Below, piece after piece: positions 6,466 through 58,310 of a stretch of DNA of 64,000 nucleotides; position 1 is the first letter of the stretch, and each line of letters begins with the position of its first letter. Source of the DNA: Cyanophora paradoxa CCMP329 (lineage: Eukaryota > Plantae > Glaucophyta); contig QPMI01000199.1 of assembly GCA_004431415.1 (NCBI GenBank), forward strand, positions 84,460-148,459, written 5' to 3'. The translations under genes and the position numbers were made by a program. The notes beneath the pieces were generated by a model, which saw only the letters and a list, made by a program, of their open reading frames with translations, was not told the DNA's origin and did not search any database.

Positions 6466-6945
6466 AAGTTGACTCACTTTTCATAAACATTTTGAACTCT
6501 TAGTTTCCTTGAATTTCTTAAGATGACTCAACTTAGTCAACTTAGTCAACTTAGTCAACTTTGTTACCATTATCAATCAGGGTGGACTCACTTTTAGATC
6601 AACTTTGAAATTTCAAGCAAAATCAACTTGGATTTCAAAAGTGGATCTTCTAAGTGGACTCAAAATGTTCACTTTGTGATACATGTTAGCTCAAATGCTT
6701 ACTGTTTATGGTCAGGGTTGACTAAGTGGGGGGAGTTGACACATTTTTTGAAATCCTTTTTAGAAAACTTTAGGCCCCAAATATTTCCTGTGAAATTTGA
6801 GTCAACTCAACCCACTTAGTCAACCCTTGCATTGAATTCGTAACAAAATCCATATACTTTTACTACTTTTACGATTAATATGAGTCAACCTTGAGTCCAC
6901 TTTAATATAAATATTATATAATAGGGGGAATCTAGGGGAGATGCT
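6466..6945 (+). repeat. PLV-A left TIR (480 bp), with 9-bp ACTTAGTCA repeats and many GAGTCAAC/GAGTCCAC motifs
   Basis: Reverse complement of 57831-58310; two mismatches seen. Confidence 0.95.
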
Positions 6946-7807: not shown

Positions 7808-9194
7808 CTAGCTAGTTTTGGTTCTTTCTCTTAGTGTTCTTTGAGGTTTAGGGGCTGTATATGACTCCTTAGTAGTCTGAAAGTCATTATACCATCTCTG
7901 GCTATTCACTTCTGAAAGTTTCTGTGTGCCTGCTATAGTGAGCTTTTTGAGTTCCCTGTTAACTTTCCCAGCCTTCTCCTTCCTAGCCTCTATCAAAGGC
8001 TTATCTGGGACTTCATTAGAAGCTTCTATGCCCTCTCTTCTTATAGCAGCATCAACCCTGGCTTCCTCTTTAGCTTGCTCTAAAGCATCTACTGTAGGGG
8101 TTTCCAGATACTCAATTGCATTCACAGGCAACAGCTCATGGAAAGCAAACCTGTTATCTATGATCTCTCCAGTGGGACTCTTTAGCTTAAACTTAAAGCC
8201 TTCCCTACTATCAACAGTGTAAACCATCCTAGACCAATTGTTACCCTGTTTAGCAAATGGGTTCTTCTCTACTTTCACTCTAACAAACATGCCAGGCTGC
8301 ATGGTATCAAGATAAGCTATTGATTTCTTGAACCTTTCATCTTCTAATCCCACTATATACCTATAATGCTCCTCTGTAGTTTCAACTGGCTTCATCTTAG
8401 TAGCTGAGTGAACTGTATTATTGTAATTATACTCAATATCACCTAACACATCAAAGAATCTAGCTGTATTATTGGCTATGCAGTAGTTTGTGATCAGTCT
8501 CTTAATCTGCTTGTTAAAGGCTTCAATTCGACCTTGGCTTCTGTGGTCTGCAGTTCCACTCACTTGGTGTTCTATGTATTTACTAGATAAAAAACTCCTG
8601 GAATATTCGATTTTGGAATTCACTCCCAGCATCTGATTGAACCTTTACTATGGGTCTTGCTACTCTCATCTCAAGCTGTTTAAATGCAGCTAATGTAGTG
8701 AGAGCTGATTTATCTCTGATAGGTATAATATACCCAGTTCTCAGTGTTGATTCCATTGCAGTCATAAAAGTATCATAACCATTGTTTTGTTTCTTATAAG
8801 CTGGGAAAAAGAGCAAATCAATCACATAGGTATCAAGGGGTTGCCTTATTGGGACCATGGGATCTCTCTTTCTAGATATAGCAGGTGCATTGATCTGAAC
8901 AACCTCTTGCTTTTTATAGAACTCTTGCAACTGCTTGTAGGATTCATCTGGTAACTCAGCCCTCATAGCTTGAAGCCCTTTGTAACCAGTTCTCACATCA
9001 TAGAATCTCTTGGCAATCTTGCTGGTTTCTTTCACTGCAATAGCAACTGGGATCTCTACTGGGACAAGCTCTTTCATCTCAGACTTTTTGACAATTCGAG
9101 ATTCCCCCTTTTCCTCCTTTGGAACTGTGATAGGCAGTAGGTTACCTTGCAGTTGCTCAGTGGTTCTCCTAACTATTCTTCCAGTTGCTGGCAT
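7808..9194 (-). CDS. rve (retroviral-type) integrase; +1 frameshift in a T run near 8590
   Basis: YVIDLLF / VQSDAGSEF / QGRIEAFN give DD35E when ORFs 8583-9194 and 7808-8632 are joined; YNNTVHSATKMKP. Confidence 0.92.
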
Positions 9195-9197
9195 CTC

Positions 9198-12100
9198 TTA
9201 ATTAAATGGAACAGAATTAATACCATCTGGTAAGATGTATCTCTTTGCATCAAAGCAATTTAGGGCAACCCTTCTACTCACAGTATCTATTATTGTGTGA
9301 TCTGCCCTTCTTTTCTGCTTTGCAGTCACAGTCTTGCTGATACCTGCAAATAAACACTCCTTAAAATCATTGAATTGGAGTTCCTCAGTGGAAGTTCCAG
9401 ATAGCTTACTTCTCTCAATCTCAGCTGTTCTGAAACTGTAAACTTTGGCTCTCAGACCTACATACTCCAGGATTGCAGAACCTGGCATCTCATTTTTGTA
9501 TTTACCTGGGGTCATTCTGGAATCACCTCCAAGGTCTAATGCATAGGATATATTCTCTATATCTGTTGCAAGGGTCTTAGATTCGATATATAGACAAAAG
9601 GAATCAGTATCATGGAATAGTAACTTTGCTTTTGACCACTGGGACCTTACAGTATCATAGAAGAACTTGTAGTTATGCAGTTTGGCTGCATCCAAAACAT
9701 AAGCCCCAATTGCAACAGGCTTATCTAGCTTCACATGCTTTGTGTAAAACTCAAAGGCAACTGCTCTTTCACTTATGGGACTTGTTGATTTCACTAAAGG
9801 AGAGGCTGCATATTTCATAAATAGCTTCTCAGTGTTGGCAATCTTAACCACAGATCGACCTCTACATGATTCAATGCATTTCCCATAGATTGAATTATTC
9901 ATGAGCTTATAGAAATCAGCCTCGAATTTATTCACTGCTTTCCTTCTCATATCAGTGTTCAGCTCAATGTAGGGTTTCATTACAGGAGCCACAGTAAATG
10001 ATAGGACCCTGTGAACCTTCTTTAGTTTCACACCTTTAGCTAACATGTATTGCAGAAGAGGCTCAGAAATCACATAGTTGGTCACAGAACCAAAGGTTGC
10101 AGTTAGCTTAGGGGTCTTATCAAGCTCTTCTCCTGAGAGATCCAATAGGCTTTTTTGATATTGTGATAATTCTGCATATTCTACTATTTTCTTGTTAATA
10201 ATTAGGGGGAAATCACTGTGATCTAGAAACAGCCTAATTGGGTAATCCAGATCAACTTCTAGGAAACTGGATCTGTTATCTTGTGGGTTGAATTCGGTCT
10301 CCCATCTAAAATCACCAACTGGGATTGGCTGACTCAAGCAGTAGCCATACAAGTTGTTAGCATCAAACAGCATAATATGGGAGTTCTCACCATCAGCCTC
10401 AGCATACCTACAGGGCATTGTTGCAAAGCCACCCCTGATTCCCCTCTCAACAAATTCGTATTGCTCTACATCACTAATAAGCTCTATTTTTGCCTTGGTG
10501 GTCCTTAACATAGCATCCCAAGATAACCCAGGGGCAGATACATAATGAACTGGGTCAAGTCCATATACTGAGTGTGAAAGCCTTCTAAAAGCCTGGAATT
10601 TGTTCATTAACTCAGTCACATCAGCAGCCCCAAAGTCCATAAAGTTACTTGCATCAATGAACTTGTAAAGACCCCATTGCAATGAAAGGTATTGATCAAA
10701 GTTTTTCGAAAGGATTTCGATTCGCTTTTTATCACCCATGCCTGCTATTTTTCTGAAAATGAATGTCCCACAGTCATCCATTTGGTCAACAACAACTGCA
10801 ACTTTGGTTTGCTTTGAGATTCTCCTATGAAGATTGCAGTTTCTGCATGCAGGAGCAATATAATTACCTGTGTGATGATCATGATCCCTGCATTTAAAGT
10901 TCTCCTTGGTGAACCTCTCACTGCAAAGGTAACAGTGTTTGGTAGCCCTATATACAGCTTTCTGCTCATCTGTGAGTTCATTCATGGGAATATTGGTAAA
11001 CAGAAAATCGATTAGTTCTCTTGCTTTGGATTCCAAGCATTCAAACAGACCTCCCATTGGATCCTGCCCCTCAAATCGAAAATTTTGAACATCTGCCCCA
11101 GTGACTACTCTGAGGTTGACTGCTGAGACTTCCCTCTTGGATTTCGATGCATCTATGGGGATGCTTCTATGTTCAATCTTGCAGTATACCACAACAGGAA
11201 GCCACACAGTTTTCCTGAGGTTTTTCAGTCCAAACTCTATGGTGGTCTCAGGCTTAGGAGTGATTCCCTTTGAGAGTCTCCAATCAATGCATCTGTTTGA
11301 GTCCACATGAGCAGTGAGTTTAGCCTCAGACCTGAATCGAGATAAGCATGTGTCACAGTAGTGTAACTTCTGATCATTGTATGTTTCATGGTTAACTTTC
11401 AATAGCCTTGAAAGGGACATGATTGTAATATAGTGACCATTCCCTTCATCATCAAATATCAGCATGAGATTAACCTTATGCTTTCTGCCTGGGTTACTTG
11501 ATTGATGCAGGGGATAAATAACCTCTCCATCGATTCCAAATATATTAATGCTAATGCCTGCATTTTGAGCCTCGAATTTATCAATTATTTCAGCATCACA
11601 GGCAACAGGGAATGGGATATTGTCGAAATTGAGAGCCAGCGGATTATAAGCGATTGCTGAGTATTTCCATTTGCGATACTGTGAAAGCTCATTCCTCTTA
11701 TGGGAGTTTATCGCTTTTCTGTGAATATATGCCAAAATTGCATTTTCGAAGCAGGAATCATCAATATTTCGAATATTTACTGTGGCTCTCTTCCTAGCAA
11801 TCCACTCTGGGGTTTGTAGAAAGCATCCACCTGTTGGAGCATAACTCATAATAGCCACTCTGAGTATTTCTATTCTCTCTAAGCGATAGCTATCAACCAC
11901 ATTCATCTGCTCCTGACACATTTGGGCTGCTTTATTCAGCTCAGTTCGAATATTTCTCGATCTGGTTAGTACAAAATAATCGCTGTAAATATATTTCGAT
12001 ATCCAAACCTGTGAATTGCTCACTTTTACGAACTTGCAGATAAAAGACAAGCGAACCTTGATTGCCCTGAATTGATCTAAACCCTGCTTTAATCGATTAG

Positions 12101-12443
12101 GAAGGGATGTAGCAATTCTGTCCAGGAATTCAATCACATCTACAACAACTTCCCTTCTGGCTCTGTAAGTGAGCCAGCGATATAATTCATTCATGGCTGT
12201 TCCATCTTCTGCCTCAGGCTCTATTTGCCTTAGGCGATCCAGTTCATCCAAGGTTTCAATTTTATCATATAGGTTATTTGCTTTTCTGGTTAATCTGGCT
12301 AAAGTGGGTCTACCCTTTGCAATTAAATCTATTTCCCGGTCATATTCAGCCTCTGTTATTTCATGGGCTGCATAAAGTGTTCCCAGCAATCCCATGAGTT
12401 CCCATTTCTTCTCCCTTATGAGTTTGTTGGTAATTCGGGGCAT
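9198..12443 (-). CDS. Protein-primed family B DNA polymerase with an inserted endonuclease VII-like Zn domain
   Basis: DANNLYG, KLMNNSIYGK, HDTDS, GLRAKVY; CYLC...RDHDHHTG...ACRNCN. Confidence 0.95.
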   Translation of the reverse strand: MPRITNKLIREKKWELMGLLGTLYAAHEITEAEYDREIDLIAKGRPTLARLTRKANNLYDKIETLDELDRLRQIEPEAEDGTAMNELYRWLTYRARREVVVDVIEFLDRIATSLPNRLKQGLDQFRAIKVRLSFICKFVKVSNSQVWISKYIYSDYFVLTRSRNIRTELNKAAQMCQEQMNVVDSYRLERIEILRVAIMSYAPTGGCFLQTPEWIARKRATVNIRNIDDSCFENAILAYIHRKAINSHKRNELSQYRKWKYSAIAYNPLALNFDNIPFPVACDAEIIDKFEAQNAGISINIFGIDGEVIYPLHQSSNPGRKHKVNLMLIFDDEGNGHYITIMSLSRLLKVNHETYNDQKLHYCDTCLSRFRSEAKLTAHVDSNRCIDWRLSKGITPKPETTIEFGLKNLRKTVWLPVVVYCKIEHRSIPIDASKSKREVSAVNLRVVTGADVQNFRFEGQDPMGGLFECLESKARELIDFLFTNIPMNELTDEQKAVYRATKHCYLCSERFTKENFKCRDHDHHTGNYIAPACRNCNLHRRISKQTKVAVVVDQMDDCGTFIFRKIAGMGDKKRIEILSKNFDQYLSLQWGLYKFIDASNFMDFGAADVTELMNKFQAFRRLSHSVYGLDPVHYVSAPGLSWDAMLRTTKAKIELISDVEQYEFVERGIRGGFATMPCRYAEADGENSHIMLFDANNLYGYCLSQPIPVGDFRWETEFNPQDNRSSFLEVDLDYPIRLFLDHSDFPLIINKKIVEYAELSQYQKSLLDLSGEELDKTPKLTATFGSVTNYVISEPLLQYMLAKGVKLKKVHRVLSFTVAPVMKPYIELNTDMRRKAVNKFEADFYKLMNNSIYGKCIESCRGRSVVKIANTEKLFMKYAASPLVKSTSPISERAVAFEFYTKHVKLDKPVAIGAYVLDAAKLHNYKFFYDTVRSQWSKAKLLFHDTDSFCLYIESKTLATDIENISYALDLGGDSRMTPGKYKNEMPGSAILEYVGLRAKVYSFRTAEIERSKLSGTSTEELQFNDFKECLFAGISKTVTAKQKRRADHTIIDTVSRRVALNCFDAKRYILPDGINSVPFN

Positions 12444-18226: not shown

Positions 18227-19009
18227 TTATAAACCGCGTTTATATCTCATCAATTTATTGCTATGGATTTGGCTTTTCACTTCTTTAGGGGCTTCCTCTT
18301 TCTCTGGTGGTTTCAGTTCATCTTCTTTCTTTTTTGGCTTTCTGTGGAAGCGAGGAAATGGGAAATCTTTCACAAGCTCAGCTTTATCTACATAGTATTT
18401 AACTGAGTAGTTTGCAGAGGACCAAATGATATACTGATAGGAGTGAACATACTCTTCAAACATCTTGTAGAAATCCTCTTTATTTCGCATTATATTGTAT
18501 TCTTCCTCTATGGCTTCAAGTTCTTTGCGATTTGCAGCACTGAGAAACATAGCATAGTCCGAATTAACTCGAATAGTCGAAGAAACTTTTCTTAGCTTTT
18601 GTGTGATGCAGATAATGGATATTTTCGAATGGCGACCTCTGGAATACAGAGATCCGATTATTTTATCCCTTGTGAGATCGACTATCTCATTATCGATTAA
18701 ATCATCTAAAACCACACACAATTGGTTAACAGGTTCACCCTTTTCTATTTTCTCTTGCCTCTCATCTAGCAATTTAGCAATGTAAGGGGCATCCCATTTT
18801 CCCAGTTGCAGTGTTGCAACCTTATCCCAAAAATGATTGAAGCTGGTTCCACTCACAACTAATACAACATCAATCTTTTTGGCATCATGTAATTGCTTTA
18901 ACCAATACTTTACAGCTTCTGATTTACCAGTTGCTGATTTTCCTATTGCCAATACACGAAATGGTGGTTCTATCATTTCACCAGCCACAAATTCATCCAA
19001 ATCAGTCAT
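18227..19009 (-). CDS. A32/FtsK-HerA-type genome packaging ATPase
   Basis: GKSATGKS, VVLDD, SRGRH, ITQ, IRVN. Confidence 0.92.
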   Translation of the reverse strand: MTDLDEFVAGEMIEPPFRVLAIGKSATGKSEAVKYWLKQLHDAKKIDVVLVVSGTSFNHFWDKVATLQLGKWDAPYIAKLLDERQEKIEKGEPVNQLCVVLDDLIDNEIVDLTRDKIIGSLYSRGRHSKISIICITQKLRKVSSTIRVNSDYAMFLSAANRKELEAIEEEYNIMRNKEDFYKMFEEYVHSYQYIIWSSANYSVKYYVDKAELVKDFPFPRFHRKPKKKEDELKPPEKEEAPKEVKSQIHSNKLMRYKRGL

Positions 19010-19074: not shown

Positions 19075-20442
19075 CTACAAATTTATACGACGAAGCCCAT
19101 CTTTGTCCAAAATTATGAAACTATGCATGAGAGCGCGAACATTAACATCGATTACCTTATCTGAAGGCATGTAGAGGGTGAGGAAGGAAGAAGAGGAATT
19201 TGTTAAATCAACATACCCAGACTGGGCAATATTTCGAATTGCCTTTTCTCCATCAAGGCAGAATGGGAGTCCTGAAAGGACATAGCGATCAGCAACCTTA
19301 TCCATGTTAGAGCATTTGAAGGCATCAGCAATTAGCTCAGCACCTTTGAGTAGGGAAATTGGCTCAGTGGCAAAAAGTCGCTGACCATTTATTTCAGTTG
19401 TGAATGTGATGTCTTTGGAGTTGGCATAGGTCTTAAGAACACTGTGGGAGCCATTGGATTTGTCAACAGTTTCATGATCACGAACTGAAACAAGCAGAGC
19501 ATATACAAGACCTGAGATTTGAGAGAGGTTAATTCGATTGGGTTGGGCATTGCCCTTGGCAGGGAAAGCACTAGCATCTACAAATCCAATATCAAGGGAG
19601 GGAATAGCCATGCCAGTAGTCTTTACTTTTTCAATTACAGTAGCGAAAAGCTCATCAGAAACATTAATAGCATGCATGTAAAGGCGAGGAGAAGTAATAG
19701 AAATAACAGGGGTTGTTGCACCAAGACTGAAAGTTGTGATATTTTGACCAACATGGGCAAGGGTTCCATCTGTAAAGTTTCCAAGACCATCATCAGCAGT
19801 TGCATCAACAGTTCCAACAGCAGTTGTGAGTTCACGACCACCATAGGAAGTTTCAACATAGCCTTTGCCAGCATCCTTAAACCAAACAGTAACAACCATT
19901 TCACCAGATAAAGCACCAAGGGGAAGATAGTGATTTAGCCAAGGCACTGGGATTTCAACGAAAAATGAGCCACCGAGTCGGTTGGTTCCATGAGCAGGGA
20001 TACCATGAACCATGCCCATTGATCGCTTCTTTTTAGCTAGTTGATCCTCCGAATAATAGACCAGGGGGAAATGAGCAAGGAAATCAGAGGGGATATGGTA
20101 GGTGTAAGATCCATAGGTAATTTCAAGTCGCTGAACTAAAGCACCAACTGGGCGAGTGTATCCATTGCGAACAAGGTCCGTATCACCAGCAAAAGTGATG
20201 GCTGGAAGGTCGAAAGCAAGTTCGAGTTTTCCACAGAAATTGTAGCGAGGTAGCTTGAAGGAAATGCGATTTCCAACATTATTCTCAAAAGTATTGCTGG
20301 GATTCACAACTACTAGAACTGGCTTAGACTTGGATTCGAGACCAAGCATAAGGGAGTTATCCAGGAAAAAGGCTTTCGCCTCCTCTGGGGTTGTAAGGGC
20401 TTCTTTCAGCGAAAGTCTTTGAAGAGTGGAAGTGATATCCAT
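19075..20442 (-). CDS. Major capsid protein (probable double jelly roll)
   Basis: ~455 aa, beta-rich, GNRISFKLPRY, next to the ATPase; orthologue at 35993-37306. Confidence 0.8.
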   Translation of the reverse strand: MDITSTLQRLSLKEALTTPEEAKAFFLDNSLMLGLESKSKPVLVVVNPSNTFENNVGNRISFKLPRYNFCGKLELAFDLPAITFAGDTDLVRNGYTRPVGALVQRLEITYGSYTYHIPSDFLAHFPLVYYSEDQLAKKKRSMGMVHGIPAHGTNRLGGSFFVEIPVPWLNHYLPLGALSGEMVVTVWFKDAGKGYVETSYGGRELTTAVGTVDATADDGLGNFTDGTLAHVGQNITTFSLGATTPVISITSPRLYMHAINVSDELFATVIEKVKTTGMAIPSLDIGFVDASAFPAKGNAQPNRINLSQISGLVYALLVSVRDHETVDKSNGSHSVLKTYANSKDITFTTEINGQRLFATEPISLLKGAELIADAFKCSNMDKVADRYVLSGLPFCLDGEKAIRNIAQSGYVDLTNSSSSFLTLYMPSDKVIDVNVRALMHSFIILDKDGLRRINL

Positions 20443-24310: not shown

Positions 24311-24826
24311 GCTCGCATGCAGGTGAACCCCACTAATTCCCGCCGACCTATTTCAGTGAGCAAATATAAAACATCCTTTATTCTCAGTCACAAATTAATA
24401 AAATCGCTGTAATTCGCACTGAGCCACACTGTCTTTTATAAACCTCTCATGCATCCTTACTGAAACCAATCACGAAAACCTAAATTTCATCTTCTCTCCG
24501 ATCTCTTACCATTCTCAGTAAGCCCTAAACCCGTCCTCCGATCTCTCAGTAAGGCACAGTAAGACCCCATTATTACGAAATGTTCCCGATCGTTGCCGGA
24601 CTGTTTTCAGTAATCCAAAAAGAAAACACAGGTGAACCCCACCGAGAGAGTACGATGATAAGTACGAGATCGATTGAGTTCGCAAGTTTGTGCTGCCGAA
24701 AATGCCCACCTGCACAAACTTGCGCACCCCATCGACAAAGTACGATGATCGACGAAGTACGACGATAGACCACGATTAATTGCAACTGGAACCACTCGCG
24801 CCCCGCCCACTATGCAAGATACATGC
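24311..24826 (+). repeat. PLV-B left TIR (516 bp)
   Basis: Reverse complement of 48542-49057; no mismatch noticed. Confidence 0.96.
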
Positions 24827-35992: not shown

Positions 35993-37306
35993 ATGGAGAC
36001 TAACAGCCAATTCCAGCGCCCAACGCTGAAATCTATGCTCACCACCGATGACTACAAGGATTATTTCCTAAACAAGTCGCTGGTCATTGGAACGTCCTCT
36101 GGCACTAAGCCACTTCGAGTTCTGGTCGCCCCCGATACCGAACCAACCAATGCCCTCGGTAACCGAGTAGTTTTCAAGATCCCCCGCTACCATTTCCTGA
36201 ATGGTCTCGCGCTGCAACTCGACCTTAACCCGATCACCCTCACTGATCTCACGAATGGTGTCGCTGGAACTACTGGCTACCTTCGCGTTATTGGATCGTT
36301 AATTAAGCGCATTGAAATCTCTCACGCTTCATTCCGCTATGTTGTCCCGGAAGATTTCGTCACCCAGTATTTTCTACTGATGACTGAACAGGGCGAACTC
36401 GATAAGAAACTTCGCTATGTGGGTGGTCTTGTCGGAACCGCTGGTAACACTGTCGGTGGAACCTACGAAATCGATTTACCCTCTCCTTTCGAGAAGGCGA
36501 TGTTCCCACTTTGCGCTCTGAACTCTGAGATCACAGTAGAAATCGAATTCAAGGCGCAAGGGGATGGTATCATTGAGGATGTAAACAATGTTGCTAATAT
36601 TGCGGTAACCAACAATGGCGCTTCCCTTCAAGTGCTGAAACCCCGCGTTATTTGCAAGGTCGTAAATGCCGATGAGGCGGTTGTATCTGAGACCATTGCC
36701 CGTGTTAAATCGACTGGCATCGCGATCCCCTACAACGAAATCGGTTTCCTACACACAGATTTCCAGCCGACCGCCTCCGGTTCGCGAGTCAATCTCTCGC
36801 AACTCACAGGTGCGGGTCTCATCCACACTCTCGTATTCTCTGTGCGCCAAAACGCGAAGACGAAGGTGAACAATGGAACTCTCTCGGTTCTGGCTCCTCG
36901 TGCGCTCAGAACCAACGCCGTAAGCTTCTATGTGGAACTCAACAATAACCGCCTTTACTCGAATACTTCGCTTCCTCTCATGATTGCCGCGACCGAACTT
37001 CAAGATAAATATAATTCGGCGATCTTTACCGAGAGCACAAGCTACCCCGCTCTCACTGGCATTTACTTCGGTGCTGGAAACGGAAAGGCGTCGCTTCTCA
37101 ACCAAGAGAACACGGGCTACATCGATGCCACAGGCACATCGGCGTTCGATCTGGTCTTCGAATTCAACGGTGTCACAACGGCAGCCGAAGGTTCATCAGA
37201 ATGGTATGCGGGTGCCGCTTATCAGAAGATGCAAATTCAGTGCATTGCCCTTGCTCATAACATAATGATAATTGGTGCCGACGGAATCAGGCGTGTAAGT
37301 AGCTAA
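35993..37306 (+). CDS. Major capsid protein (probable double jelly roll)
   Basis: GNRVVFKIPRY; colinear homologue of 19075-20442. Confidence 0.8.
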   Translation: METNSQFQRPTLKSMLTTDDYKDYFLNKSLVIGTSSGTKPLRVLVAPDTEPTNALGNRVVFKIPRYHFLNGLALQLDLNPITLTDLTNGVAGTTGYLRVIGSLIKRIEISHASFRYVVPEDFVTQYFLLMTEQGELDKKLRYVGGLVGTAGNTVGGTYEIDLPSPFEKAMFPLCALNSEITVEIEFKAQGDGIIEDVNNVANIAVTNNGASLQVLKPRVICKVVNADEAVVSETIARVKSTGIAIPYNEIGFLHTDFQPTASGSRVNLSQLTGAGLIHTLVFSVRQNAKTKVNNGTLSVLAPRALRTNAVSFYVELNNNRLYSNTSLPLMIAATELQDKYNSAIFTESTSYPALTGIYFGAGNGKASLLNQENTGYIDATGTSAFDLVFEFNGVTTAAEGSSEWYAGAAYQKMQIQCIALAHNIMIIGADGIRRVSS

Positions 37307-37364: not shown

Positions 37365-38231
37365 ATGCAAAAAGGGACGACGCCCATAGATCTTGAAGAA
37401 TGGAACCCGAAACAGAGGGTGAAACTTCCCGCACGATTTCTCCTATTGGCGAAAACCAATTGTGGTAAATCGGTATTCTTAAAGTGGCTGATCAAAGAAC
37501 TCGAAGACCAGATCTCATACGTTCTGGTCTTTTGTCCAACGAGTTTCAACGGTTTCTGGGGACAAATTACAGACGAAGTGCATGACACCTGGAAACCGGA
37601 ATATGTAGAGTCGATCATAGAAGCCCGCAAAAAAGCCATCATTGCGGGTAAGAAACCAAAGAATATTCTCATTGTGCTCGACGATTGTTTGGAGTCCGGA
37701 ACGATCGATCTTTCGCGCGATCATTTGCTAAATAAATTGATGGCGCAAGGTCGTCATACTTTTTGCAGCGTGGCTTTAATATCGCAGAAACTAACAAAGC
37801 TTTCAACGATCATTCGCAGCAATGCGGAGTATATCATATTCCTAAGCTGGTCAAACATGCGAGAGTTTGAAGCATATCACGAAGAGTTCGGGAACATGGA
37901 TAAAGAGAGTTTTAAGCGCATGTTCCAAGAATTCTGTCATAGCTACCAAGCGATCATTCACGATAATACGGGGTATTCTGTGCGATGGTGGGTCGAAAAA
38001 GCCGATATGATCGATGACCATCCGTTTACTAAATTCCACAAGCGGGCGGCTTTTGAAGAAAAGAAGCGCAAACAGCAAGAGGAGCAAGCATCAAAACCGC
38101 CGCCTGTCAAAGATTCGACAACTGTATGCAAAACTTTATCCAAATTTGAGCGTGAGCTTGAAGGTATCCCCAAACTTTCGCAAATTTCGCCCAAGAAAAA
38201 GAAAATGTTAATCAAGTGTAAGAAAAGATAA
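37365..38231 (+). CDS. A32-type packaging ATPase
   Basis: AKTNCGKS, IVLDD, QGRH, ISQ, IRSN. Confidence 0.92.
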   Translation: MQKGTTPIDLEEWNPKQRVKLPARFLLLAKTNCGKSVFLKWLIKELEDQISYVLVFCPTSFNGFWGQITDEVHDTWKPEYVESIIEARKKAIIAGKKPKNILIVLDDCLESGTIDLSRDHLLNKLMAQGRHTFCSVALISQKLTKLSTIIRSNAEYIIFLSWSNMREFEAYHEEFGNMDKESFKRMFQEFCHSYQAIIHDNTGYSVRWWVEKADMIDDHPFTKFHKRAAFEEKKRKQQEEQASKPPPVKDSTTVCKTLSKFERELEGIPKLSQISPKKKKMLIKCKKR

Positions 38232-38233
38232 TC

Positions 38234-39511: not shown

Positions 39512-39627
39512 TTTTTGTGGTGCTGTTATCGCTCCGAGCGCAAAAATTGAAGGTTTCGGTAAAAGGTATATAAGGGCAAGGGAAATAATACAGAGTGACA
39601 AAAAACTATTTTCTCCGGTTATAGTAA

Positions 39628-40041
39628 ATGGCGAAACCCAAGATTTCAAACCAAGAGGCAATGGCGGCACAGCAGGAAAAGCGCAGACCCGGGCGACCGA
39701 AAAAGGTGATTTCAGAAGAGGAGAAGGCGGAGAGATTAAGATTAAAACGCGAGAAAGATGCCGAGCGGCAGCGAAACAAGCATCAGAGACAGAAACAGGA
39801 GCGATTAGCCGCCGGAGAGGCTACGATATTCACCCCGGAGCAGCTACAAAAGATTGCAATTCGTAAACAGCAGCGATACCAAGACGATGAAGAGTATCGG
39901 GAGAAAATCCGAGAGAAGGCACGTGAATACCAACGCAGAAAGAGAGCGGAACGCAAGCTGAACCCACCCGCTAAACCTCAGCCGCAAAAGCCAGCTGGAA
40001 GACCCCGAAAGCATGTGGTCGAGAACGCGAAAAATTCGTAG
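39628..40041 (+). CDS. Basic protein with two AT-hook-like motifs
   Basis: RRPGRPKK, GRPRK; homologue of 16461-16787. Confidence 0.78.
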   Translation: MAKPKISNQEAMAAQQEKRRPGRPKKVISEEEKAERLRLKREKDAERQRNKHQRQKQERLAAGEATIFTPEQLQKIAIRKQQRYQDDEEYREKIREKAREYQRRKRAERKLNPPAKPQPQKPAGRPRKHVVENAKNS

Positions 40042-40210
40042 CGAAAAGTACCGTACGATGCAAAAAATGATTAATTTTTTTACCTCCCTTTTTATTCCCC
40101 GTATCGTTCAAAAAAGCACTTAAAGAATTGGCGACAAGGGTATGAAAAGGAGAATTTGGTAGATTGCGCCGAAATTATTTTCTCCGGTTATTTTAAAAGA
40201 ACTAATAGAG

Positions 40211-43200: not shown

Positions 43201-44521
43201 CTGTTTCGCATCTCAAAAGTCGAATTGCTTAGTTATTTGCCCCTATAACAAACAGTGCGCGGAGCTGAGGGACTCTCTCAAAGTCCGCGGAATCGAGAAT
43301 ATTACCGTTCGTACTTTATATAATGTTCTCGGGATCCGTGTCTCAAATGATCAGACCTACGAAGAGGCTATGAGCGAAAAAGACCAGAGGGCGTTCGTCT
43401 CCGAGTTCAGCCACATTATGTTCGACGAGATATTCGCGTATTCCGTAAAAGATCTCGCTAAGATTAAGTCGTTTATTGATCGCTATCCGGATATCAAATA
43501 TTTGGCTAATGGCGATACCTATCAGAACGAACCAATTAATGACGAGCTCTCGGTTTCTGATCGCAAGGGCTACTATAAGCGCGCTGTGCAGAGCATGTTC
43601 CCTAATGTCCTGAGTCTACGCATTAACAAGCGGCACAAGAAGGAGACAGACCGTGAATTAATTCGGGCGATTAAAGAGGATCTCTTCGAAAACGGACTGG
43701 AAGCCGCACAGATCATTTCAAAATACGGTTTGCCGACAATTAATGATCTAAACGCTATTCCCGACGGCTACTTCGGCATCGCTTACAGAAACGAAATGAC
43801 CTTAGCCTATAACAAACTGATGCACGATAGACGGAAAGTAAATATTGCAACCGTAGAGGTCAATGGCATCAAATTCTACAAAGGTTTGGAAGTCGTTTGT
43901 CGCAGGTATCTACGCATTTCGCGGTCTGAGGGTGAGTCTATTAACGCATACACAAATTACACCTATCGGATCACCAAAATCACCAAGCAAATGGTCACAT
44001 TAACTGACGTCTTCGATGGCGTCACGTTCGAGGTTCCGTGCGCGATGTTAGAACATTTTTCTCTCCCTTATGCAGGAACAGGTCATTCAACGCAAGGTCT
44101 CACACTTGATTCGGGCATTGTCATTTGTGAGGCTACGTTCCGCTATACCACTCGCGAATGGTTCTATACCGCGCTCACTCGTAACCGCGATCTGTCTACG
44201 GTGCTGATTTATACACCTATTCACAAGTTCCAAGGAAAGAGCGACTACATCGAATATCTGAAAACGAAGATCCGCGGTTATAAATGCCAGGATCAGCGTG
44301 CCGGTCGCGATTTCAACGAGGCGGATTATATTACGCCGGAGTGGATATTAGAGCGCAAGAAGCAACAGAAGGGCGCCTGTGCGCTCTGTTCCCTTCCGAT
44401 TCCGATTGAGCCGCAAGATCCGAATTACAGGCTCGTCGTGGATCGCATCAATAATAAGCGCCCACACCTTAAAGACAATTGTCAACTCGCGCATCACGGG
44501 TGCAATTGCAGCAAAAAATAA
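40211..44521 (+). CDS. Divergent PolB-like polymerase - SF1 (RecD/Pif1-like) helicase - HNH fusion
   Basis: DMAKCYPS, KHIL..EIGMLGK, IRTDC; PGSGKS, FDE, GDTYQ, HSTQGLTLD, YTALTR; CALC...DRINN..H..DNC. Confidence 0.85.
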   Translation: MPRATNRIANNVRDEIIGYIMQGLSQDLLTEEQAHWAMHNTMNRKPKLQTLIDIRDTLKGIINPRVFRRAERKEKRAARTQVNIEKQKQKEQEAKRLQRFDRKQEQKRAKEAKLQAKQFKGQLKAVEDAIKRTILDPIAQYDPETLATITFKMWAPGSGARSSEVIVIPGIPGTYIKDKTFVTYQNIRETVSVRVLRNFALAKIDRVYGILTAQNRYYSEERDSIFDLLENYDELKIGLGTFGQAYEMFFFKTPPTEEQKKLRKGFDDFGGSVDDAFITVHEVVIYGDEGVEDDGAGAIPGNRYAFLDEELMDSMRCTAIMSKFTDYTLNPNASEFEDVIELPKSSTSNACGYDMIISTWGASIKKCQEAPKPRYTDLTMSYDGLYKFFHGRERTPDDSLALTLRHIEKFCKRIQTGFRVFDVDGKLIYKFAAESINKNINPRNIHFMIHNKHIYIFNDNIKSLEMRMAKMEVEELDNHVPKSNSSLALYKIPTCLTHDIFAHTSKDLLKITQLKLSPDERSFIRILYTGREGLEGLLFTFLKMRYEPAVKLTPSKQIDSITFKANGSMFSIKDPRTTDHFIEQDFETEEYYNKVCEIGKGFRESLLNTTNISHYSPNMREILTHYKRSALSGFFYKPNPKATYTAVDMAKCYPSILKGMQYLPKYNVFDDFVPFKAGSDILEYAIYYVRVVAFEREQATFADDEDVDYDAAMSRKIDGIEIILDRAFSVSGRCYNFITGYTLSMHWADVKDKIEIIAVAEPSHLVPNTSISEMKKVLSSDIQTTDKKHILVKEIGMLGKFQDSQTSTKMFYNRAEAERFAQECGGTVEVFTFNPKNSKRVKTLSEFEGHIYFVKISSHRELVNGFLPIHFHIYDRNRANMFAQYKRLTARGHKVAGIRTDCLYIEGSWTSKKEFDRNAFENMGKFSYIPGKRCPENALRPPRGVTLEFQDPETLINRFSLRDEFNPECFNWVAKLHNRMRVLADMPGSGKSTLGINCFASQKSNCLVICPYNKQCAELRDSLKVRGIENITVRTLYNVLGIRVSNDQTYEEAMSEKDQRAFVSEFSHIMFDEIFAYSVKDLAKIKSFIDRYPDIKYLANGDTYQNEPINDELSVSDRKGYYKRAVQSMFPNVLSLRINKRHKKETDRELIRAIKEDLFENGLEAAQIISKYGLPTINDLNAIPDGYFGIAYRNEMTLAYNKLMHDRRKVNIATVEVNGIKFYKGLEVVCRRYLRISRSEGESINAYTNYTYRITKITKQMVTLTDVFDGVTFEVPCAMLEHFSLPYAGTGHSTQGLTLDSGIVICEATFRYTTREWFYTALTRNRDLSTVLIYTPIHKFQGKSDYIEYLKTKIRGYKCQDQRAGRDFNEADYITPEWILERKKQQKGACALCSLPIPIEPQDPNYRLVVDRINNKRPHLKDNCQLAHHGCNCSKK

Positions 44522-44540
44522 ACAGGTTTAATTAGAAGAA

Positions 44541-45922
44541 ATGTCACGGATCGTTAGAAGGGTAGCGGGAGAGGAGACAGAGACCACCATACTACCTATC
44601 GCGGTTCCTGAAACTGAGCTAATCCCCAAAAAATCACAAAACGCCAAGCAAAATCAAATTTATTAGGAGATGTTCCTTTTAGCATTGCTAACCCGTCCTC
44701 TAAGATCGTGCGACGCATGTATGACCCGAAGACAGGTTTTAAGAACCCATCGGCATTGTACGAAGAGCTGAGAAAAGAGGACAAGAGCCTCACATTGAAA
44801 GAAGTGCAAGATGTCGCAGCGAAACAAGAATTTATGCAGATCAACAAGAAGCCCCCCGCACCGACCCAAACCGCTTTTATTCCCATCACAGCCCCGCCGT
44901 GGTGCTACCAAGCAGATCTCATCTTTTATCTCTCATATGGCAATTATAATTCCGGCTACATTGCAGTCCTTACTCTCATTGAGATGACGAGCCGAAAATC
45001 GTATGCCAAGAAATTAAAGAATAAAGAGGGCGCGAGTGTTGCTACCGCTTTTGCGGAGATGCTTACAGAGCTCCCCGCTCCAATGAAGCGTTTAGAGACA
45101 GATAACGGCTCAGAATTCATCGCAAAGGAGTTTCAGGAGATCGTTAAAAATAACGGAATAGAACACCGCTTTAAACAGGTCGGAGATCACACTTCGCTGG
45201 GAATTATGAATCGCTTTCATTTGACCCTAAAAACGATGATAAACAATTACTGTGTCGCCTATAATACAGTGCGGTTTATGGATAAATTGGACGACTTCGT
45301 TTTCAATTACAATAACACCATTCACAGAACCATAGGAATGAAACCGGGGGATGTAAAGCTCTCAGATATGGAGCAGATCCGAGCGGCTATTATTTCGAGA
45401 AAGAACACAATCGTAAAGGATATATTCAGCGACTTTAAGCCGGGTCTCCACGTCCGCCTATTATTGCCGAGATCGAAGTTCGATAAAGGCGCGACCCAAA
45501 GGTATAGCAGAGAGGTCTACAAAATAGTGGGAAGGAGGGGAAACGCAATAGAGGTGCAAGATGCAGCCGGATACCTCATGCCGAAGCTATTTAAGCCGCA
45601 CGAATTGCAGATTATTACAGAGGTCGAGGCAGTGGTCGAGCCCGCAGAAAATGCAATTAAAGCAGCCGAGATAGAGGCAGCCTCTATTCGGCAGGTTCAA
45701 AAAGAAGGCATAGATGTCGCCGCAAGTGTTCCGAAAGGCGATCTATTGGAAGATCGCGCGGAGAAGACTAAGAGGGCGCTTAGAGAGCTCGCGAAATTAA
45801 CGATTGCCGGCACTGAGAAGCTCTCAGAGGTAAACAGTCAGCGGTGGTATAAATCATTCAAGAATCAGAGCGCAAGCTATACAGCCCCTACTACGCGCAT
45901 TCTTCGGTCATCTCGTTCATAA
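44541..45922 (+). CDS. rve integrase (DD35N); frameshift near 44625
   Basis: YQADL, ETDNGSEF, LGIMNRFH, YNNTIHRTIGMKP; the N-terminus MSRIVRR at 44541 matches the PLV-A integrase. Confidence 0.9.
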
Positions 45923-45961
45923 CAAACCCCGAAATTATTTTCTCCGGTAAATATAAAAGAG

Positions 45962-46276
45962 ATGGAGGGTGAAAAGCATTATGTTGATATTCCCTATGAT
46001 AAAAAGAACGTTGCGAAATCCCTCGGTGGAAAGTGGGATCCCGAGAATTCTTGCTGGTATGTGACACAGAAAGATCACCCCCTATGCTCTCAGTTCAAGA
46101 CTTTAAGCTATGAGCAAGTGTATCAAAGAAACGTGAAGGTTTATCTCGATATTCCTTATGAATTTAAGGATCAAGCGAAGGCTGAGAAAGCCCGCTGGGA
46201 TCCCGTTATGAAATCCTGGTATGTCATGGGTCTCGATCACCCGCTAATGGGCAAGTTTCCGATCAAGGAGCATTAA
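45962..46276 (+). CDS. Tandem DUF5710-like protein
   Basis: Two copies of Y.DIPY..K..AK....WDP....WYV. Confidence 0.8.
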   Translation: MEGEKHYVDIPYDKKNVAKSLGGKWDPENSCWYVTQKDHPLCSQFKTLSYEQVYQRNVKVYLDIPYEFKDQAKAEKARWDPVMKSWYVMGLDHPLMGKFPIKEH

Positions 46277-46301
46277 ATATATCTGTCGTTTTTTTCATTT
46301 T

Positions 46302-46694
46302 TTATGAAATTGGGAACCTTTGCTCGACCTGTAAGTCCCACTTTCGCACTTTCAGCCTTTCCTGTATGAGATCGTTAATGTCCTGTGCTATACCCATTGT
46401 CTTCGCTTCGGCATTTGAGCCGCATGTAAAGATATCGATCGCTAATAGCCCCTGGTCGCTATAAGAGTGAGCTGTGGCATGCGACTCATCTAATAGAAAG
46501 CCAATCGCGAAACCGGGAGGGGAATTAGAGCCATCGAAAATGCATGTGTGCTGGTGCACGATGCGCATATTGCGATCTGTGATATATTGCGATAGGTTCG
46601 CTGTGATCCACTCGGCGCATGCCTCCGGGGACTCAGTAAACGGCTCGGTTATATAGTCGAGCATAACGTGGTAGCCGCGGTATCGGGAATCCAT
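46302..46694 (-). CDS. S-adenosylmethionine decarboxylase (SpeD/SpeH-like proenzyme)
   Basis: GYHVMLD, PPG, LLDESHATAHSY, AIDIFTCG. Confidence 0.9.
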   Translation of the reverse strand: MDSRYRGYHVMLDYITEPFTESPEACAEWITANLSQYITDRNMRIVHQHTCIFDGSNSPPGFAIGFLLDESHATAHSYSDQGLLAIDIFTCGSNAEAKTMGIAQDINDLIQERLKVRKWDLQVEQRFPIS

Positions 46695-47699: not shown

Positions 47700-48491
47700 T
47701 TATTTTTCAACAAGTTCATAGTTAGTCATTATGATATGGTTCCTTTTTCGTTTTGTTATACCATACACTTTGCCATACGTATGGCGAATATAGGGTTTAA
47801 ATAGGAGTTTCATTAAAAGAGCATCATTTACAACCATCATAATTTTGCATTTCGCTGTCTTAAATAGGTCTTCCAAATCCAAAAAGAAGGTTTCTAAATC
47901 GAATTCTACATTTTCGTAAAAGTCATTATTGCTGTTCACGTATGGAGGATCGAGAAATATAAAAGCCGCTTCGTCATCTCTATATTTCGCTAAGATATCG
48001 CGAAAATCTCCATGAGATAGGTTGGCTTCTTTTATAAAATCATCGTATGGTATCTTCTTTTTAAGAGTTGTATATGGACTTACCTTCACATTTCGTTTTT
48101 TAAAATCACGGAGCGTTTTAACATTTAGAATACTGTTTTTAAGAAGATAGAAATGATGTGCTAAGTAATCATGTTGTAGAAACTTCTTATAGACTTCTTT
48201 ATGCTCTTCTATATTGCTTACTGCTTCGAACTGTTTTAGACTCTCTAAGAGTTTAACTTTGTTGTTTGGGTCTTTCATTGTATTCAAAAAAAGGGTATGG
48301 GTTTCGTCGTTATCATTCATATAATAATCAAACCGGTCTTTATGCTTTTCCCAAAGATAGAAACTACAAGCACCTGAACCACAAAACGGTTCTATAACTT
48401 TATTAATTCCTTCTAAATCGATATATGGATAGATCGTTTCCATTTCATTATACTTGTTGCCGGTATATTTATGGTAAAAGTGAGTCTTCAT
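47700..48491 (-). CDS. Dam-like (D12 class) N6-adenine DNA methyltransferase
   Basis: YTGNK, EPFCGSGA, ND, FLDPPY. Confidence 0.9.
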   Translation of the reverse strand: MKTHFYHKYTGNKYNEMETIYPYIDLEGINKVIEPFCGSGACSFYLWEKHKDRFDYYMNDNDETHTLFLNTMKDPNNKVKLLESLKQFEAVSNIEEHKEVYKKFLQHDYLAHHFYLLKNSILNVKTLRDFKKRNVKVSPYTTLKKKIPYDDFIKEANLSHGDFRDILAKYRDDEAAFIFLDPPYVNSNNDFYENVEFDLETFFLDLEDLFKTAKCKIMMVVNDALLMKLLFKPYIRHTYGKVYGITKRKRNHIIMTNYELVEK

Positions 48492-48541: not shown

Positions 48542-49057
48542 GCATGTATCTTGCATAGTGGGCGGGGCGCGAGTGGTTCCAGTTGCAATTAATCGTGGTC
48601 TATCGTCGTACTTCGTCGATCATCGTACTTTGTCGATGGGGTGCGCAAGTTTGTGCAGGTGGGCATTTTCGGCAGCACAAACTTGCGAACTCAATCGATC
48701 TCGTACTTATCATCGTACTCTCTCGGTGGGGTTCACCTGTGTTTTCTTTTTGGATTACTGAAAACAGTCCGGCAACGATCGGGAACATTTCGTAATAATG
48801 GGGTCTTACTGTGCCTTACTGAGAGATCGGAGGACGGGTTTAGGGCTTACTGAGAATGGTAAGAGATCGGAGAGAAGATGAAATTTAGGTTTTCGTGATT
48901 GGTTTCAGTAAGGATGCATGAGAGGTTTATAAAAGACAGTGTGGCTCAGTGCGAATTACAGCGATTTTATTAATTTGTGACTGAGAATAAAGGATGTTTT
49001 ATATTTGCTCACTGAAATAGGTCGGCGGGAATTAGTGGGGTTCACCTGCATGCGAGC
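48542..49057 (-). repeat. PLV-B right TIR
   Basis: Inverted copy of 24311-24826. Confidence 0.96.
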
Positions 49058-49063
49058 AAGCCA
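49058..49063 (+). repeat. Right target-site duplication AAGCCA
   Basis: Identical to 24305-24310. Confidence 0.95.
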
Positions 49064-52000
49064 CCAGAAGGAGACCTAGGAAACTCAAAACCAGTGGCAC
49101 TCATCCAGATATACCTTCTAGGTTTGATAGTGGTCGATTGATTTTCAATGTTCAAGATGAGCAGGGCAAACAGAACACAGCTTTGCGAATTTACAATGAG
49201 GGCAGCACTGCAAAAGCAGAGGTCCCCCAAGTATTGCAAGTGGGTCCCATTGCCAATACAAATCAGGTCTCCTACACAAATGATGTCTACCCCAAGGATA
49301 TTACATATGACTTTGCGAGGAATGAGCCTTTTGGGTTCTTTACTCCAAAAGATGTCCATCAAAAAAAGCCATCAATTACAATCAACAGTAGCCCCAGTCA
49401 ACCAGTAGCAATCCATTTACATCCTGATCTTGTTGAAATGGATAGGCACCTTTTGCCTTTGTATAGCAATGTGAAAGACCTTGGAATTCGAACCAGGCAA
49501 TGGCGAAATATCCATGGCAGCAATGTGTATGCAAATGGTGAGAAGCTTGTAAGTGAGAAGACCATAAGAGAGATCTTTGAGTATTATGGACCTGTCCCAG
49601 TTCCCTTCCCTCTTCCATGGGATCCACCGGATTTAACACCGAAAAAGCAGCCTGGAAGAGAATACACAGCAACTGAAGATGTAGCCTTTGGGCAGCATAT
49701 TGTTAGTTGGGAGCAAGTTCGCAATAAACCTATAATTGAACCAAGAAAGCAAATAGATGAGCAGTATTTACCTCCTGAAGTCGACATATTAGAGCTTGAT
49801 GAATATCAATTCGTTCCAGATAAGGAGGAGTATTTACCAGATGGTTTTGACCCACAAGAATATGAATATGATCAGTTTGACCCCAATGAGGAGGAGATAC
49901 TACCAGATGGCTTAGATCCACAAGAGTTTGAGTATGAGCAGAACTATGAACCTGATGAGGAGTATTTGCCAGATGGTCATGATCCACCAGCTGTTGACTA
50001 TGAGCAACCTTATGAACCCCATGAGGAACTATTACCAGATGGATTTCGACCTGAGATCTGGGAGTTCTTTCCTGATTATGAACAAATTAATAATAAACCT
50101 GCAAAGTATCCCCCAGAGGATCACAATCATGATTGGGATGAGATCTTAGGCAAACCTCAAAAGTATCCACCAGAGGACCACAGGCATGATTGGGGAGAAA
50201 TTGATGGAATACCAGAAGAATTTCCACCAATCAAACATGAACACACTTGGGATGAGATTAATGACCAACCAGAATTCGCAAAGGTAGAGCCTCTTGATAA
50301 CTTGGGGGTTTCTCTTTATCAGACTTGTAATGTCCCAGAAAGAATCTTTTTGAATGAACACTATGTACATGTGAATGGGACACTTGCAAATTCAGCTATG
50401 AGAGGACCACTTCATATTAGGACACTACCAGGCTCTTATAATCCACCACCTGAACCAGGAGCGACCATACCAAATATCTTTGTGTCAAGCTACATGGAGG
50501 CTGACATTCCCACAGATACATTCAGAGTCCCAACAGACCCAGCAACCTACCAAAACTTTAACTCTGCTATACAGGTTCATGTTGCAGATGTAAGCAGTTT
50601 AGATGGCTCAAGACCAATGATAGTTTTCAGTCGAGATAAATATTCCTACATTCCCATAGTGGGAACTGCAAATGATAACTATGGGAGGGCAGAGCTTGCA
50701 TGGATCAAAACGAATTATGGTGGGGTTCTTGAAGCCAATCAAAGAATGGCTGCAAAAAACATACACAATGAGAGCATTTCGAGAGTAGTCACAGAGGATT
50801 ACCTTACTGCAGTAATCCTTGTTAATTTTGTAACCCTTGCTATGCTTGATCAATTTATTACAGAAGCTGAACTTGCAGCAGAACTATCCAATTATCTCCC
50901 TCTTGTGGGTGGGACAATCACAGGAAACCTCACAGTTAATAGTAATATTTACAGCAGCAATATAGAGACCAGCAACCTAAAAGTAAATGGAATCCTCACA
51001 ATTGGCTCTTGCAATTTCAATACCATGAATCAGGTTTACGAAGAATGGTATGATGTCCCACCAAGCTTTGATCCAGCATCAAATATCTCGAACTGCATTT
51101 TTGCTTGGAAGGCATCAGGAGTACCAGGTCAATCAGCAATGTATACAACTATAGTAAGCAGAGTCCCGAATTCAGTTGTTCCAGACTTGTTTATCTCCGG
51201 AGCCAGTTCCTATTACACCAATCCCGAAATCAACAACCAAGTTAGTGTTTCAAGCCCAACAGGCACTTTTTATGCATATACCTCTGCTACAAGAACTATT
51301 GATTTCTCAAATGGGCTTACATTTTTCTTTGTGGGAAAATATCATCCAACTGCCTCTTCTATGCAAGTTCACTTGAGACTTTACAGAAGCGCCTTTCCAT
51401 CACGATATTGTTATTATGGGGCAACATCTTCTACTGCTATTGGAATGAACCAGTTCACTATTAATGGAGCATCCCAAACCCGCCCAGTTATAACAGTTCC
51501 TTCTTTAATAAATACATGGTATTACACTGACCAAACAATTACTTCCAGCAGCTACACAGTCGGGTTAAATGGAGTAGATATTGAAACACTTGTAGGAACA
51601 AATTATCTACCAGATAATACTGTCAATCATTTCGGATTTGGTAATATTGTGAATGGTGGTATTTCCGAGTTGATTGTTTTCAATAGGGCTTTGACAACTT
51701 CTGAAAAGAATGCTGTGAGGTATTACATTCAACAAAAATAAGGATTCACTCATACCCAGACTCTGAATATTTACAGAGGATTAAAAATAACCTCACCTGA
51801 TACTGTAATAGATTACCTTACAGTTACAAGCAATGCAAATTTACCACATCATCCAACCTCTAATGTGGTTCAAGGTTGGATTCAAAATCACACTCACACA
51901 AAAGCCCAGATTACAGATTTTGACCACACCCATGCCTGGTCGAATATTGTAGATAAACCTTTGACCTTCCCTCCCAGTTCTCACAATCACTTATGGGAGC

Positions 52001-54843: not shown

Positions 54844-54846
54844 TAA

Positions 54847-57218: not shown

Positions 57219-57617
57219 ATGGAGACTCAATACAGAGGCTTTCATGTTATGCTTGATTACAAGGCTAAATCAGCTATTGCAACAGGACATGAGCATGTGA
57301 GCTTCCTAGGTAATTGGATTATGGGAACCCTTGAACAAGCAGTATTAAGACAAGGCATTAGGATTGTTCATAAACACTGTGAGATATTTGATGGCAAAGT
57401 ATCACCTCCTGGTTTTGCATTGGTTCTGCTATTAGATGAAAGCCACTGTACAGCTCATTGTTATTCCAATGAAGGCATGTTAGCAATTGATATATTCAGT
57501 TGTGGTAAAGAAGCTCAGCATAAAACACAAGCAGTAGCAGATGAGATCGATAAAACAATGAATTTCCTCACATTTGAGAAGACTGAGAGACATAAACATG
57601 ATAGATTCCCGTTTTGA
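57219..57617 (+). CDS. S-adenosylmethionine decarboxylase (SpeD/SpeH-like proenzyme)
   Basis: GFHVMLD, PPG, LLDESHCTAHCY, AIDIFSCG. Confidence 0.9.
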   Translation: METQYRGFHVMLDYKAKSAIATGHEHVSFLGNWIMGTLEQAVLRQGIRIVHKHCEIFDGKVSPPGFALVLLLDESHCTAHCYSNEGMLAIDIFSCGKEAQHKTQAVADEIDKTMNFLTFEKTERHKHDRFPF

Positions 57618-57830: not shown

Positions 57831-58310
57831 AGCATCTCCCCTAGATTCCCCCTATTATATAATATTTATATTACAGTGGACTCAAGGTTGACTCATATTA
57901 ATCGTAAAAGTAGTAAAAGTATATGGATTTTGTTACGAATTCAATGCAAGGGTTGACTAAGTGGGTTGAGTTGACTCAAATTTCACAGGAAATATTTGGG
58001 GCCTAAAGTTTTCTAAAAAGGATTTCAAAAAATGTGTCAACTCCCCCCATTTAGTCAACCCTGACCATAAACAGTAAGCATTTGAGCTAACATGTATCAC
58101 AAAGTGAACATTTTGAGTCCACTTAGAAGATCCACTTTTGAAATCCAAGTTGATTTTGCTTGAAATTTCAAAGTTGATCTAAAAGTGAGTCCACCCTGAT
58201 TGATAATGGTAACAAAGTTGACTAAGTTGACTAAGTTGACTAAGTTGAGTCATCTTAAGAAATTCAAGGAAACTAAGAGTTCAAAATGTTTATGAAAAGT
58301 GAGTCAACTT
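57831..58310 (-). repeat. PLV-A right TIR
   Basis: Inverted copy of 6466-6945. Confidence 0.95.

Follow-up and report, generated by a model that had tools for sequence, protein, structure and literature searches.

The window, i.e., the entire stretch of 64,000 nucleotides that was analyzed, contains two related Polinton-like elements, of which the inner one (24311-49057) lies inside the outer one (6466-58310). Each of them carries a gene for a small pyruvoyl decarboxylase (Table 1). The initial annotation had described two small viruses that both keep such a gene; this description stands, except that the TIR positions place one element within the other rather than side by side. The inner element is flanked by a 6-bp target duplication, and no such duplication was seen at the TIR bounds of the outer element (6466/58310), the right end of which exceeds the left by ~20 element-like bases. 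A long fiber-like ORF of the outer element is split by the inner element; its parts begin at 24058 and extend to 51741. The left flank (170-4392) holds a reverse-transcriptase retroelement (RVT_1), and the right flank (58353-64000) is composed of a 149-bp satellite with higher-order repeats of 1.3-1.7 kb.

Table 1. Coordinates of the features discussed in the text (positions in the window; in the last row, positions in the contigs named)
Feature	Position	Strand	Remarks
Left TIR, outer element	6466..6945		480 nt
Outer rve integrase	7808..9194	-	Split over two overlapping ORFs in the present copy
Outer protein-primed-type family B DNA polymerase	9198..12443	-	Pfam DNA_pol_B_2
Outer A32-type packaging ATPase	18227..19009	-	Pfam Pox_A32
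Outer major capsid protein	19075..20442	-	Homology to the inner capsid protein
Left TIR, inner element	24311..24826		516 nt, with 100% complementarity to its right counterpart
Inner major capsid protein, likely double jelly-roll	35993..37306	+	30% identical to the outer one
Inner A32-type packaging ATPase	37365..38231	+	Pfam Pox_A32
Inner rve integrase	44717..45922	+	Pfam rve
DUF5710 gene	45962..46276	+	Convergent neighbor of the inner decarboxylase gene
Inner-element pyruvoyl decarboxylase	46302..46694	-	130 aa; AdoMetDC fold of class 1b; likely an arginine decarboxylase of SpeDA type
Inner Dam-family adenine DNA methyltransferase	47700..48491	-	MethyltransfD12 above cutoff; TIGR00571 below cutoff
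Right TIR, inner element	48542..49057
Outer-element pyruvoyl decarboxylase	57219..57617	+	132 aa
Right TIR, outer element	57831..58310
Giant-virus-type relatives of the decarboxylases	L119:9998-10381, L120:3656-4042, L121:1223-1609		Neighboring genes: Erv1, RNase III, D5 primase; L121 judged by eye

Both elements have the sequence make-up of a Polinton-like virus/Maverick, i.e., TIRs, a capsid protein, a packaging ATPase and an integrase; a patatin gene is found in each, and fiber-like genes are also present. The capsid assignment is based on two observations, the mutual homology of the inner and outer proteins and the ESM Atlas features of the inner one (0.97-0.98 to viral clusters, some of them Capsid_N), for which the recognition value was sub-threshold and serves as a lead only. 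A scan of viral contigs with the inner capsid protein yielded no relative. An inner gene at 35020-35945, which matches an outer gene at 20496-21506, is present as two ORFs in this copy. The segment 40211-44521 encodes a 1436-aa replication protein of the inner element, which shows a weak C-terminal match to superfamily 1 helicases below the cutoff and, by eye, motifs like those of family B polymerases; BLAST gave no match between this protein and the outer polymerase.

Pfam scans of 52 window ORFs, including all element ORFs of at least 200 aa, revealed no spermidine synthase, in agreement with the initial annotation, and no agmatinase or DHS. Because these ORFs include no partner gene for polyamine synthesis, the decarboxylase genes are referred to as “stand-alone”.

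Fold, processing residues and conservation

Both decarboxylase ORFs are open. Their products are 46% identical (133 columns, E 3e-41) and exceed the cutoff of 25 bits for the Pfam family AdoMet_dc (PF02675), with 45.1 bits for the inner and 44.2 bits for the outer protein. For the inner protein, a structure model with a mean pLDDT of 96 gave class 1b AdoMetDC of Aquifex and Thermotoga as the best Foldseek match (E 9e-8, TM 0.76). The Glu-Ser-His motif is intact in both proteins, and the equivalents of Ser63, His68 and Cys83 of the T. maritima enzyme, which are needed for self-processing (PMC10407285), are kept as S71/H76/C91 in the inner and S75/H80/C95 in the outer protein. The catalytic residues are invariant across the clade to which the window pair belongs. 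By analogy with assayed relatives, both proteins are predicted to cleave themselves at Glu-Ser. The earlier claim that the window holds two orthologues with an intact ESH motif is thus borne out.

At this level of identity, the decarboxylases are the best conserved full-length pair between the elements, ahead of the integrase (38%), the ATPase and patatin (37% each) and the capsid protein (30%). Gene space is tight in 25-kb elements, yet the decarboxylase is better conserved than capsid or ATPase. The third codon positions of the two genes agree at only 32%, and each copy matches its own element in GC3 and CpG, which argues for an old residence rather than a recent swap. Contigs from several DNA runs of one organism cover both genes, in many variant copies. 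Among the listed variants, 19 of 24 in the outer gene (pN/pS 0.07, binomial p 8e-10) and four of five in the inner gene (pN/pS about 0.07, p 0.009) are synonymous; the variants are shared between runs and hence do not represent independent events. None of the listed variants of either gene is a stop or an indel. In one RNA run, no contig covered the outer gene, a result without bearing on its expression. Both genes are intact and under purifying selection.

Relatives and probable substrate

Relatives of the window pair were found with wide alignments; a word-index search with the inner protein alone returned nothing, and a viral-contig scan with a two-sequence alignment returned no relative. 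A scan of GTDB gave 457 relatives, and 79 of the best 80 carry titles of Poseidoniales/marine Euryarchaeota-type archaea. At these best 80 of the 457 loci, a DHS/SpeY-like gene is present in 79 cases and an agmatinase-like gene in 18; at one locus (L068) the gene order is agmatinase, decarboxylase, SpeY-like. Five such archaeal genomes, all incomplete MAGs, have one PF02675 match each, and spermidine synthase was found in none of these five. Among the best 80 of 319 relatives from a metagenome scan, 72 have DHS-like and 42 agmatinase-like neighbors.

Assayed archaeal SpeDA genes are located in the same agmatinase-decarboxylase-SpeY cluster, and two marine group II/Poseidoniales proteins of the same study gave no complementation of an E. 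coli speD mutant and accepted arginine as their only substrate (PMC10407285). The assayed archaeal enzymes share a clade with enzymes from Gimesia, Solirubrobacter, Nannochloropsis and Tribonema (PMC10407285), and SpeY is described as using agmatine (PMC13625781). The tie between the window pair and the assayed proteins (DAC51064, AIF02979, XP_005856029 and KAG5182568) is one of taxon and gene order, not of aligned sequence.

Fused domains were surveyed in 40 long relatives, which include all those of at least 230 aa among the best 150 profile matches from 1.84 billion proteins. The partner is an agmatinase in one case, a DHS/SpeY-like domain in five (one below the cutoff), a PQ-loop domain in four, an NNMT-type domain in four and a SET domain in two (one below the cutoff), and none of the 40 is fused to a spermidine synthase. 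In four eukaryote-like proteins (P0099, P0113, P0133 and P0136) the decarboxylase is joined to an NNMT/PNMT-type N-methyltransferase, and two of them add a SpeY-like domain; a possible reading is an undescribed route to methylated agmatine or homospermidine. The PQ-loop/SemiSWEET-type membrane domain is found in P0086, P0090, P0121 and P0131; PQ-loop proteins include cationic amino-acid exporters. The SET fusions were also considered as pieces of diatom-type long-chain-polyamine synthases, an idea that was rejected as 20 long relatives gave no match to an aminopropyltransferase family.

Three trees were calculated. The first had 101 rows, with 21 of the 80 GTDB rows kept, three rows skipped and the careful search unfinished. 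The second, with 56 rows (without L027, long branches), contains a 40-row clade (95/72) that groups the window pair with proteins of speB/speY clusters; the window pair does not group with the SpeDC-like row. For the third tree, with 44 rows, 17 rows were dropped, including three long-branch validated AdoMetDCs and SpeDC-type rows, and five unassayed phage rows were added after the first AU result had been seen. Here, the window pair and the operonic proteins form a 32-row clade (97/94) apart from nine canonical-type rows. As judged from sequence, the window pair is thus placed in an apparently Poseidoniales-type SpeDA clade. In BLAST, the window proteins score 89-100 bits against six archaeal-type operonic proteins, compared with 24-38 bits against four validated phage AdoMetDCs. 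Identity to the operonic proteins is only 39-54%, so a further substrate switch is possible.

The proteins could alternatively be true AdoMetDCs, which would give decarboxylated SAM to a spermidine synthase of the host, the arrangement in cyanophages and certain phycodnaviruses. Their fold and processing residues fit this function, for which stand-alone viral class 1b enzymes have been validated (PMC9992855), and SpeDA is described as little diverged from true AdoMetDC (PMC10407285). Furthermore, AU tests in which the window clade was held with the canonical enzymes did not reject this arrangement (~140 columns), with p 0.0995 in the first test and p 0.052 in a repeat with a row set that had been changed after the first result. 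The low similarity to validated AdoMetDCs stands against a true AdoMetDC, as do the neighbors and fusions, which point to agmatine chemistry and, among the 40 long relatives, lack spermidine synthase.

The sequence marks around the active site bear on the same question. Both proteins score below the cutoff of 75.65 bits for the AdoMetDC equivalog TIGR03330 (48.6 and 44.4 bits), which is a weak test since a member of their own clade, L001, scores 75.8 bits, i.e., at the cutoff. The signature of the subfamily is Pro-Pro-Gly-Phe before the cleavage site, Tyr in place of Trp-Pro-Glu, and a C-terminal Arg-Phe. In the window pair, the canonical Trp-Pro-Glu after the catalytic His is replaced by Tyr-Ser-Asp/Asn, which speaks against AdoMetDC activity. 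Tyr occupies the Trp70 position in 79 of the best 80 of the 457 GTDB relatives and in all 47 of the first relatives, and the Glu72 position is variable; in the T. maritima enzyme, Trp70 and Glu72 presumably hold the adenine and the ribose. Two positions are candidates for the “gamma” proline of PMC10407285 (Fig. 8). That at Tm51, two residues before a conserved glycine, is present in the window pair, which would fit a true AdoMetDC; that at Tm71 is absent, as it is in the validated AdoMetDC phiYS40. Taken together, we consider a true AdoMetDC unlikely.

The inner protein sits on a long end branch (0.96-1.36), and substrate switches recur in this fold, an example being phiN3, a true AdoMetDC located within the ODC clade (PMC9992855). 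Both observations would be in line with a different substrate (ornithine, lysine or some unknown amino acid) or with a role that involves no catalysis. The SpeDC ornithine decarboxylases carry diagnostic Gln, Thr, Phe and Tyr residues around the active site (PMC10407285). The SpeDC-like row has Thr before the catalytic Ser, where the window pair has Glu, and the type differs throughout (24-38 bits in BLAST); in addition, the catalytic residues of the window clade do not vary. Such a substrate or role is therefore improbable. Arginine decarboxylase chemistry of both proteins is, in contrast to these alternatives, quite probable by analogy with the assayed enzymes. The name “AdoMet decarboxylase” in the initial annotation accordingly holds for the fold but probably not for the substrate, which is likely arginine in view of the TIGR03330 result and the Poseidoniales-type relatives; the accompanying remark that some homologues decarboxylate arginine (supported by the SpeDA-type clade, the agmatine-using neighbors and the fusion partners) is most likely the right answer. 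With a small protein of 130 aa and three substrates, the substrate question is cheap to assay.

Spread among viruses and functional role

The nearest relatives with genomic context are found in the giant-virus-type contigs L119 and L120 (50-52% identity to the outer protein), the former with an NCLDV capsid gene and the latter with a GH46 chitosanase. In the 44-row tree, the window pair and the giant-virus-type relatives form a 7-row clade (99/92), itself located among eukaryote-like proteins. The search of IMG/VR yielded 28 loci, and the same subfamily is present in six small contigs with a Polinton-like layout (L005, L007, L008, L009, L011 and L023), with A32 ATPase matches in L005, L007, L008 and L023. 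The copies in these six contigs form a separate branch, close to the giant-virus copies L003/L004, and a single clade of the window pair with three small Polinton-like contigs was rejected (AU p 1.5e-5). Because the window pair and the small IMG/VR contigs are on different branches, there are at least two lineages of the gene in such small viruses, both of them close to giant-virus copies. This pattern points to gene traffic between small Polinton-like viruses and giant viruses; the gene likely dates back to a common ancestor of the two families of elements, and exchange with giant viruses is likewise probable. None of the 28 IMG/VR loci has an agmatinase or DHS neighbor, i.e., the viruses keep the first step only. 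In the T4-like phage contigs L017, L018 and L020, a canonical-type and a SpeDC-like decarboxylase gene are found in tandem, and Microcystis phage MaAM05 likewise has two decarboxylase genes.

We consider it probable that the gene product is a virus-borne arginine decarboxylase that feeds polyamine synthesis of the host; if the chemistry is that of an arginine decarboxylase, the polyamine-supply role is very likely. The proenzyme would cleave itself at Glu-Ser to form the pyruvoyl cofactor, and the viral enzyme would then convert L-arginine to agmatine, where both the processing and the arginine specificity are taken from assayed relatives. A host agmatinase or deiminase could convert agmatine to putrescine, or a SpeY-like enzyme could yield homospermidine. 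Reactivation of the element would in this manner open or widen the arginine-agmatine route and bypass the regulated ornithine decarboxylase of the host. The larger polyamine pool may serve translation and packing of the viral DNA, as has been argued for pelagiphages and chloroviruses (PMC9992855). The polyamine boost that had been proposed is therefore retained as an outcome, with the AdoMetDC route replaced by that from arginine to agmatine.

The same chemistry could instead be used for interference, where arginine depletion or agmatine build-up would hamper a co-infecting giant virus or host signaling. This use would agree with an enzyme that stands alone without a downstream gene, and with the fact that giant-virus contigs hold the closest outside relatives with context, a pattern suggestive of shared hosts. 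However, the gene is also maintained by giant viruses and phages themselves (L119, L120, L002-L004 and L001), in line with a benefit to viral replication, the SpeDA enzymes of this clade that have been measured are slow (PMC10407285; kcat/Km 20-180 per M per s), and there is no sign in the window of a dependence of the elements on a giant virus. Interference is thus doubtful. A related scenario, to which we assign a low probability, is that SpeDA was acquired more than once by small double jelly-roll viruses, which would share it with giant viruses in the same hosts and use it in a three-way conflict, where an arginine drain or agmatine flood would shift polyamines from the co-infecting giant virus to themselves.

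The CpG content differs strongly between the elements. In the outer element (6466-24310 and 49058-58310) CpG o/e is 0.30-0.37, with an excess of TpG/CpA, and in its decarboxylase gene it is 0.14; the host flanks are at 1.1-1.3. The inner core (32657-46694) shows no depletion (1.2-1.4). The two related element families thus have opposite CpG histories in one host. The loss of CpG in the outer element may be a methylation scar, although avoidance by selection would give the same picture. The left arm of the inner element (25156-28849, with C1q and fiber genes) is outer-like in GC3 and CpG, which suggests that it was acquired through module exchange. The Dam methylase gene, with a GC3 of 0.32 compared with ~0.5 in the inner core, is likely a later arrival in the inner element, where GATC o/e is 1.64.

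These data bear on the proposal of the initial annotation that the enzyme drains SAM, such that lower SAM or higher decarboxylated SAM would blunt silencing by DNA and histone methylation. An inner core that is not depleted in CpG would agree with such an effect, as would the lack of an aminopropyltransferase among the scanned ORFs of either element, and SET or NNMT-type domains, which use SAM, are fused to some of the relatives. A SAM drain, however, requires AdoMetDC activity, which is itself unlikely given the SpeDA-type grouping. The inner element encodes, 1 kb from its decarboxylase gene, a Dam methylase that requires SAM. Moreover, the outer element has carried the gene for a long time and is still strongly depleted in CpG, with a TpG/CpA excess, and its lineage therefore does not look shielded from cytosine methylation. 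A fused methyltransferase would presumably be better served by SAM that is kept than by SAM that is destroyed. We regard the SAM drain as highly improbable, and the term “AdoMet decarboxylase” in such elements is an annotation trap, because the gene is probably unrelated to SAM or methylation.

Comparison with known systems

The best structural match to the window proteins, i.e., the T. maritima/Aquifex class 1b AdoMetDC (PDB 1tlu, 1vr7 and 2iii; TM 0.69-0.76), shares Glu-Ser-His and the equivalents of His68 and Cys83. It differs in sequence (~20% identity), and in the window proteins Ser55 is replaced by Ala and Trp70-Pro71-Glu72 by Tyr-Ser-Asp/Asn, and a three-residue insertion precedes the Pro-Pro-Gly-Phe loop.

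The SpeDA clade, as described in PMC10407285, resembles the window pair in its class 1b fold and processing residues. The nearest prokaryotic relatives of the window pair are from the same archaeal group and have the same speB-speDA-speY order, and eukaryote-like relatives exist as well. The window genes differ in that each stands alone in an integrated virus of 25-27 kb, at 39-54% identity, and is known from sequence; the available text of PMC10407285 names no viral member of the clade.

Known viral polyamine enzymes include the pyruvoyl ADC of pelagiphage HTVC201P, pyruvoyl ODCs of phages, class 1b AdoMetDCs of cyanophages and phycodnaviruses, and the PLP-type ADC pathway of chloroviruses (PMC9992855). 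They share with the window pair the trait of a lone viral decarboxylase that is thought to raise the polyamine supply of the host, but belong to another branch of the family, with the pelagiphage-type row far from the window pair. The carriers in the accessible text of that paper are phages and giant viruses, and no Polinton-like virus is named there. In a SPOT survey of 2,355 PLV populations, neither a decarboxylase nor polyamines appear in the main text, where the supplements could still list the Pfam domain, and full-text literature searches gave no report that links this enzyme, or polyamines, to Polinton-like viruses.

With Polinton-like viruses/Mavericks that use an rve integrase, the window elements share TIRs, capsid, A32 ATPase, integrase, patatin and fiber-like genes; the 6-bp target duplication is matched by the inner and the family B polymerase by the outer element. 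They differ from these viruses by the polyamine gene. Arginine decarboxylases derived from SpeD, like genes for polyamine metabolism in general, are already known from viruses, and it is the Polinton-like class of carrier that appears to be new in the literature searched, by which viral polyamine metabolism is extended from phages and giant viruses to integrated Polinton-like viruses of 25 kb.
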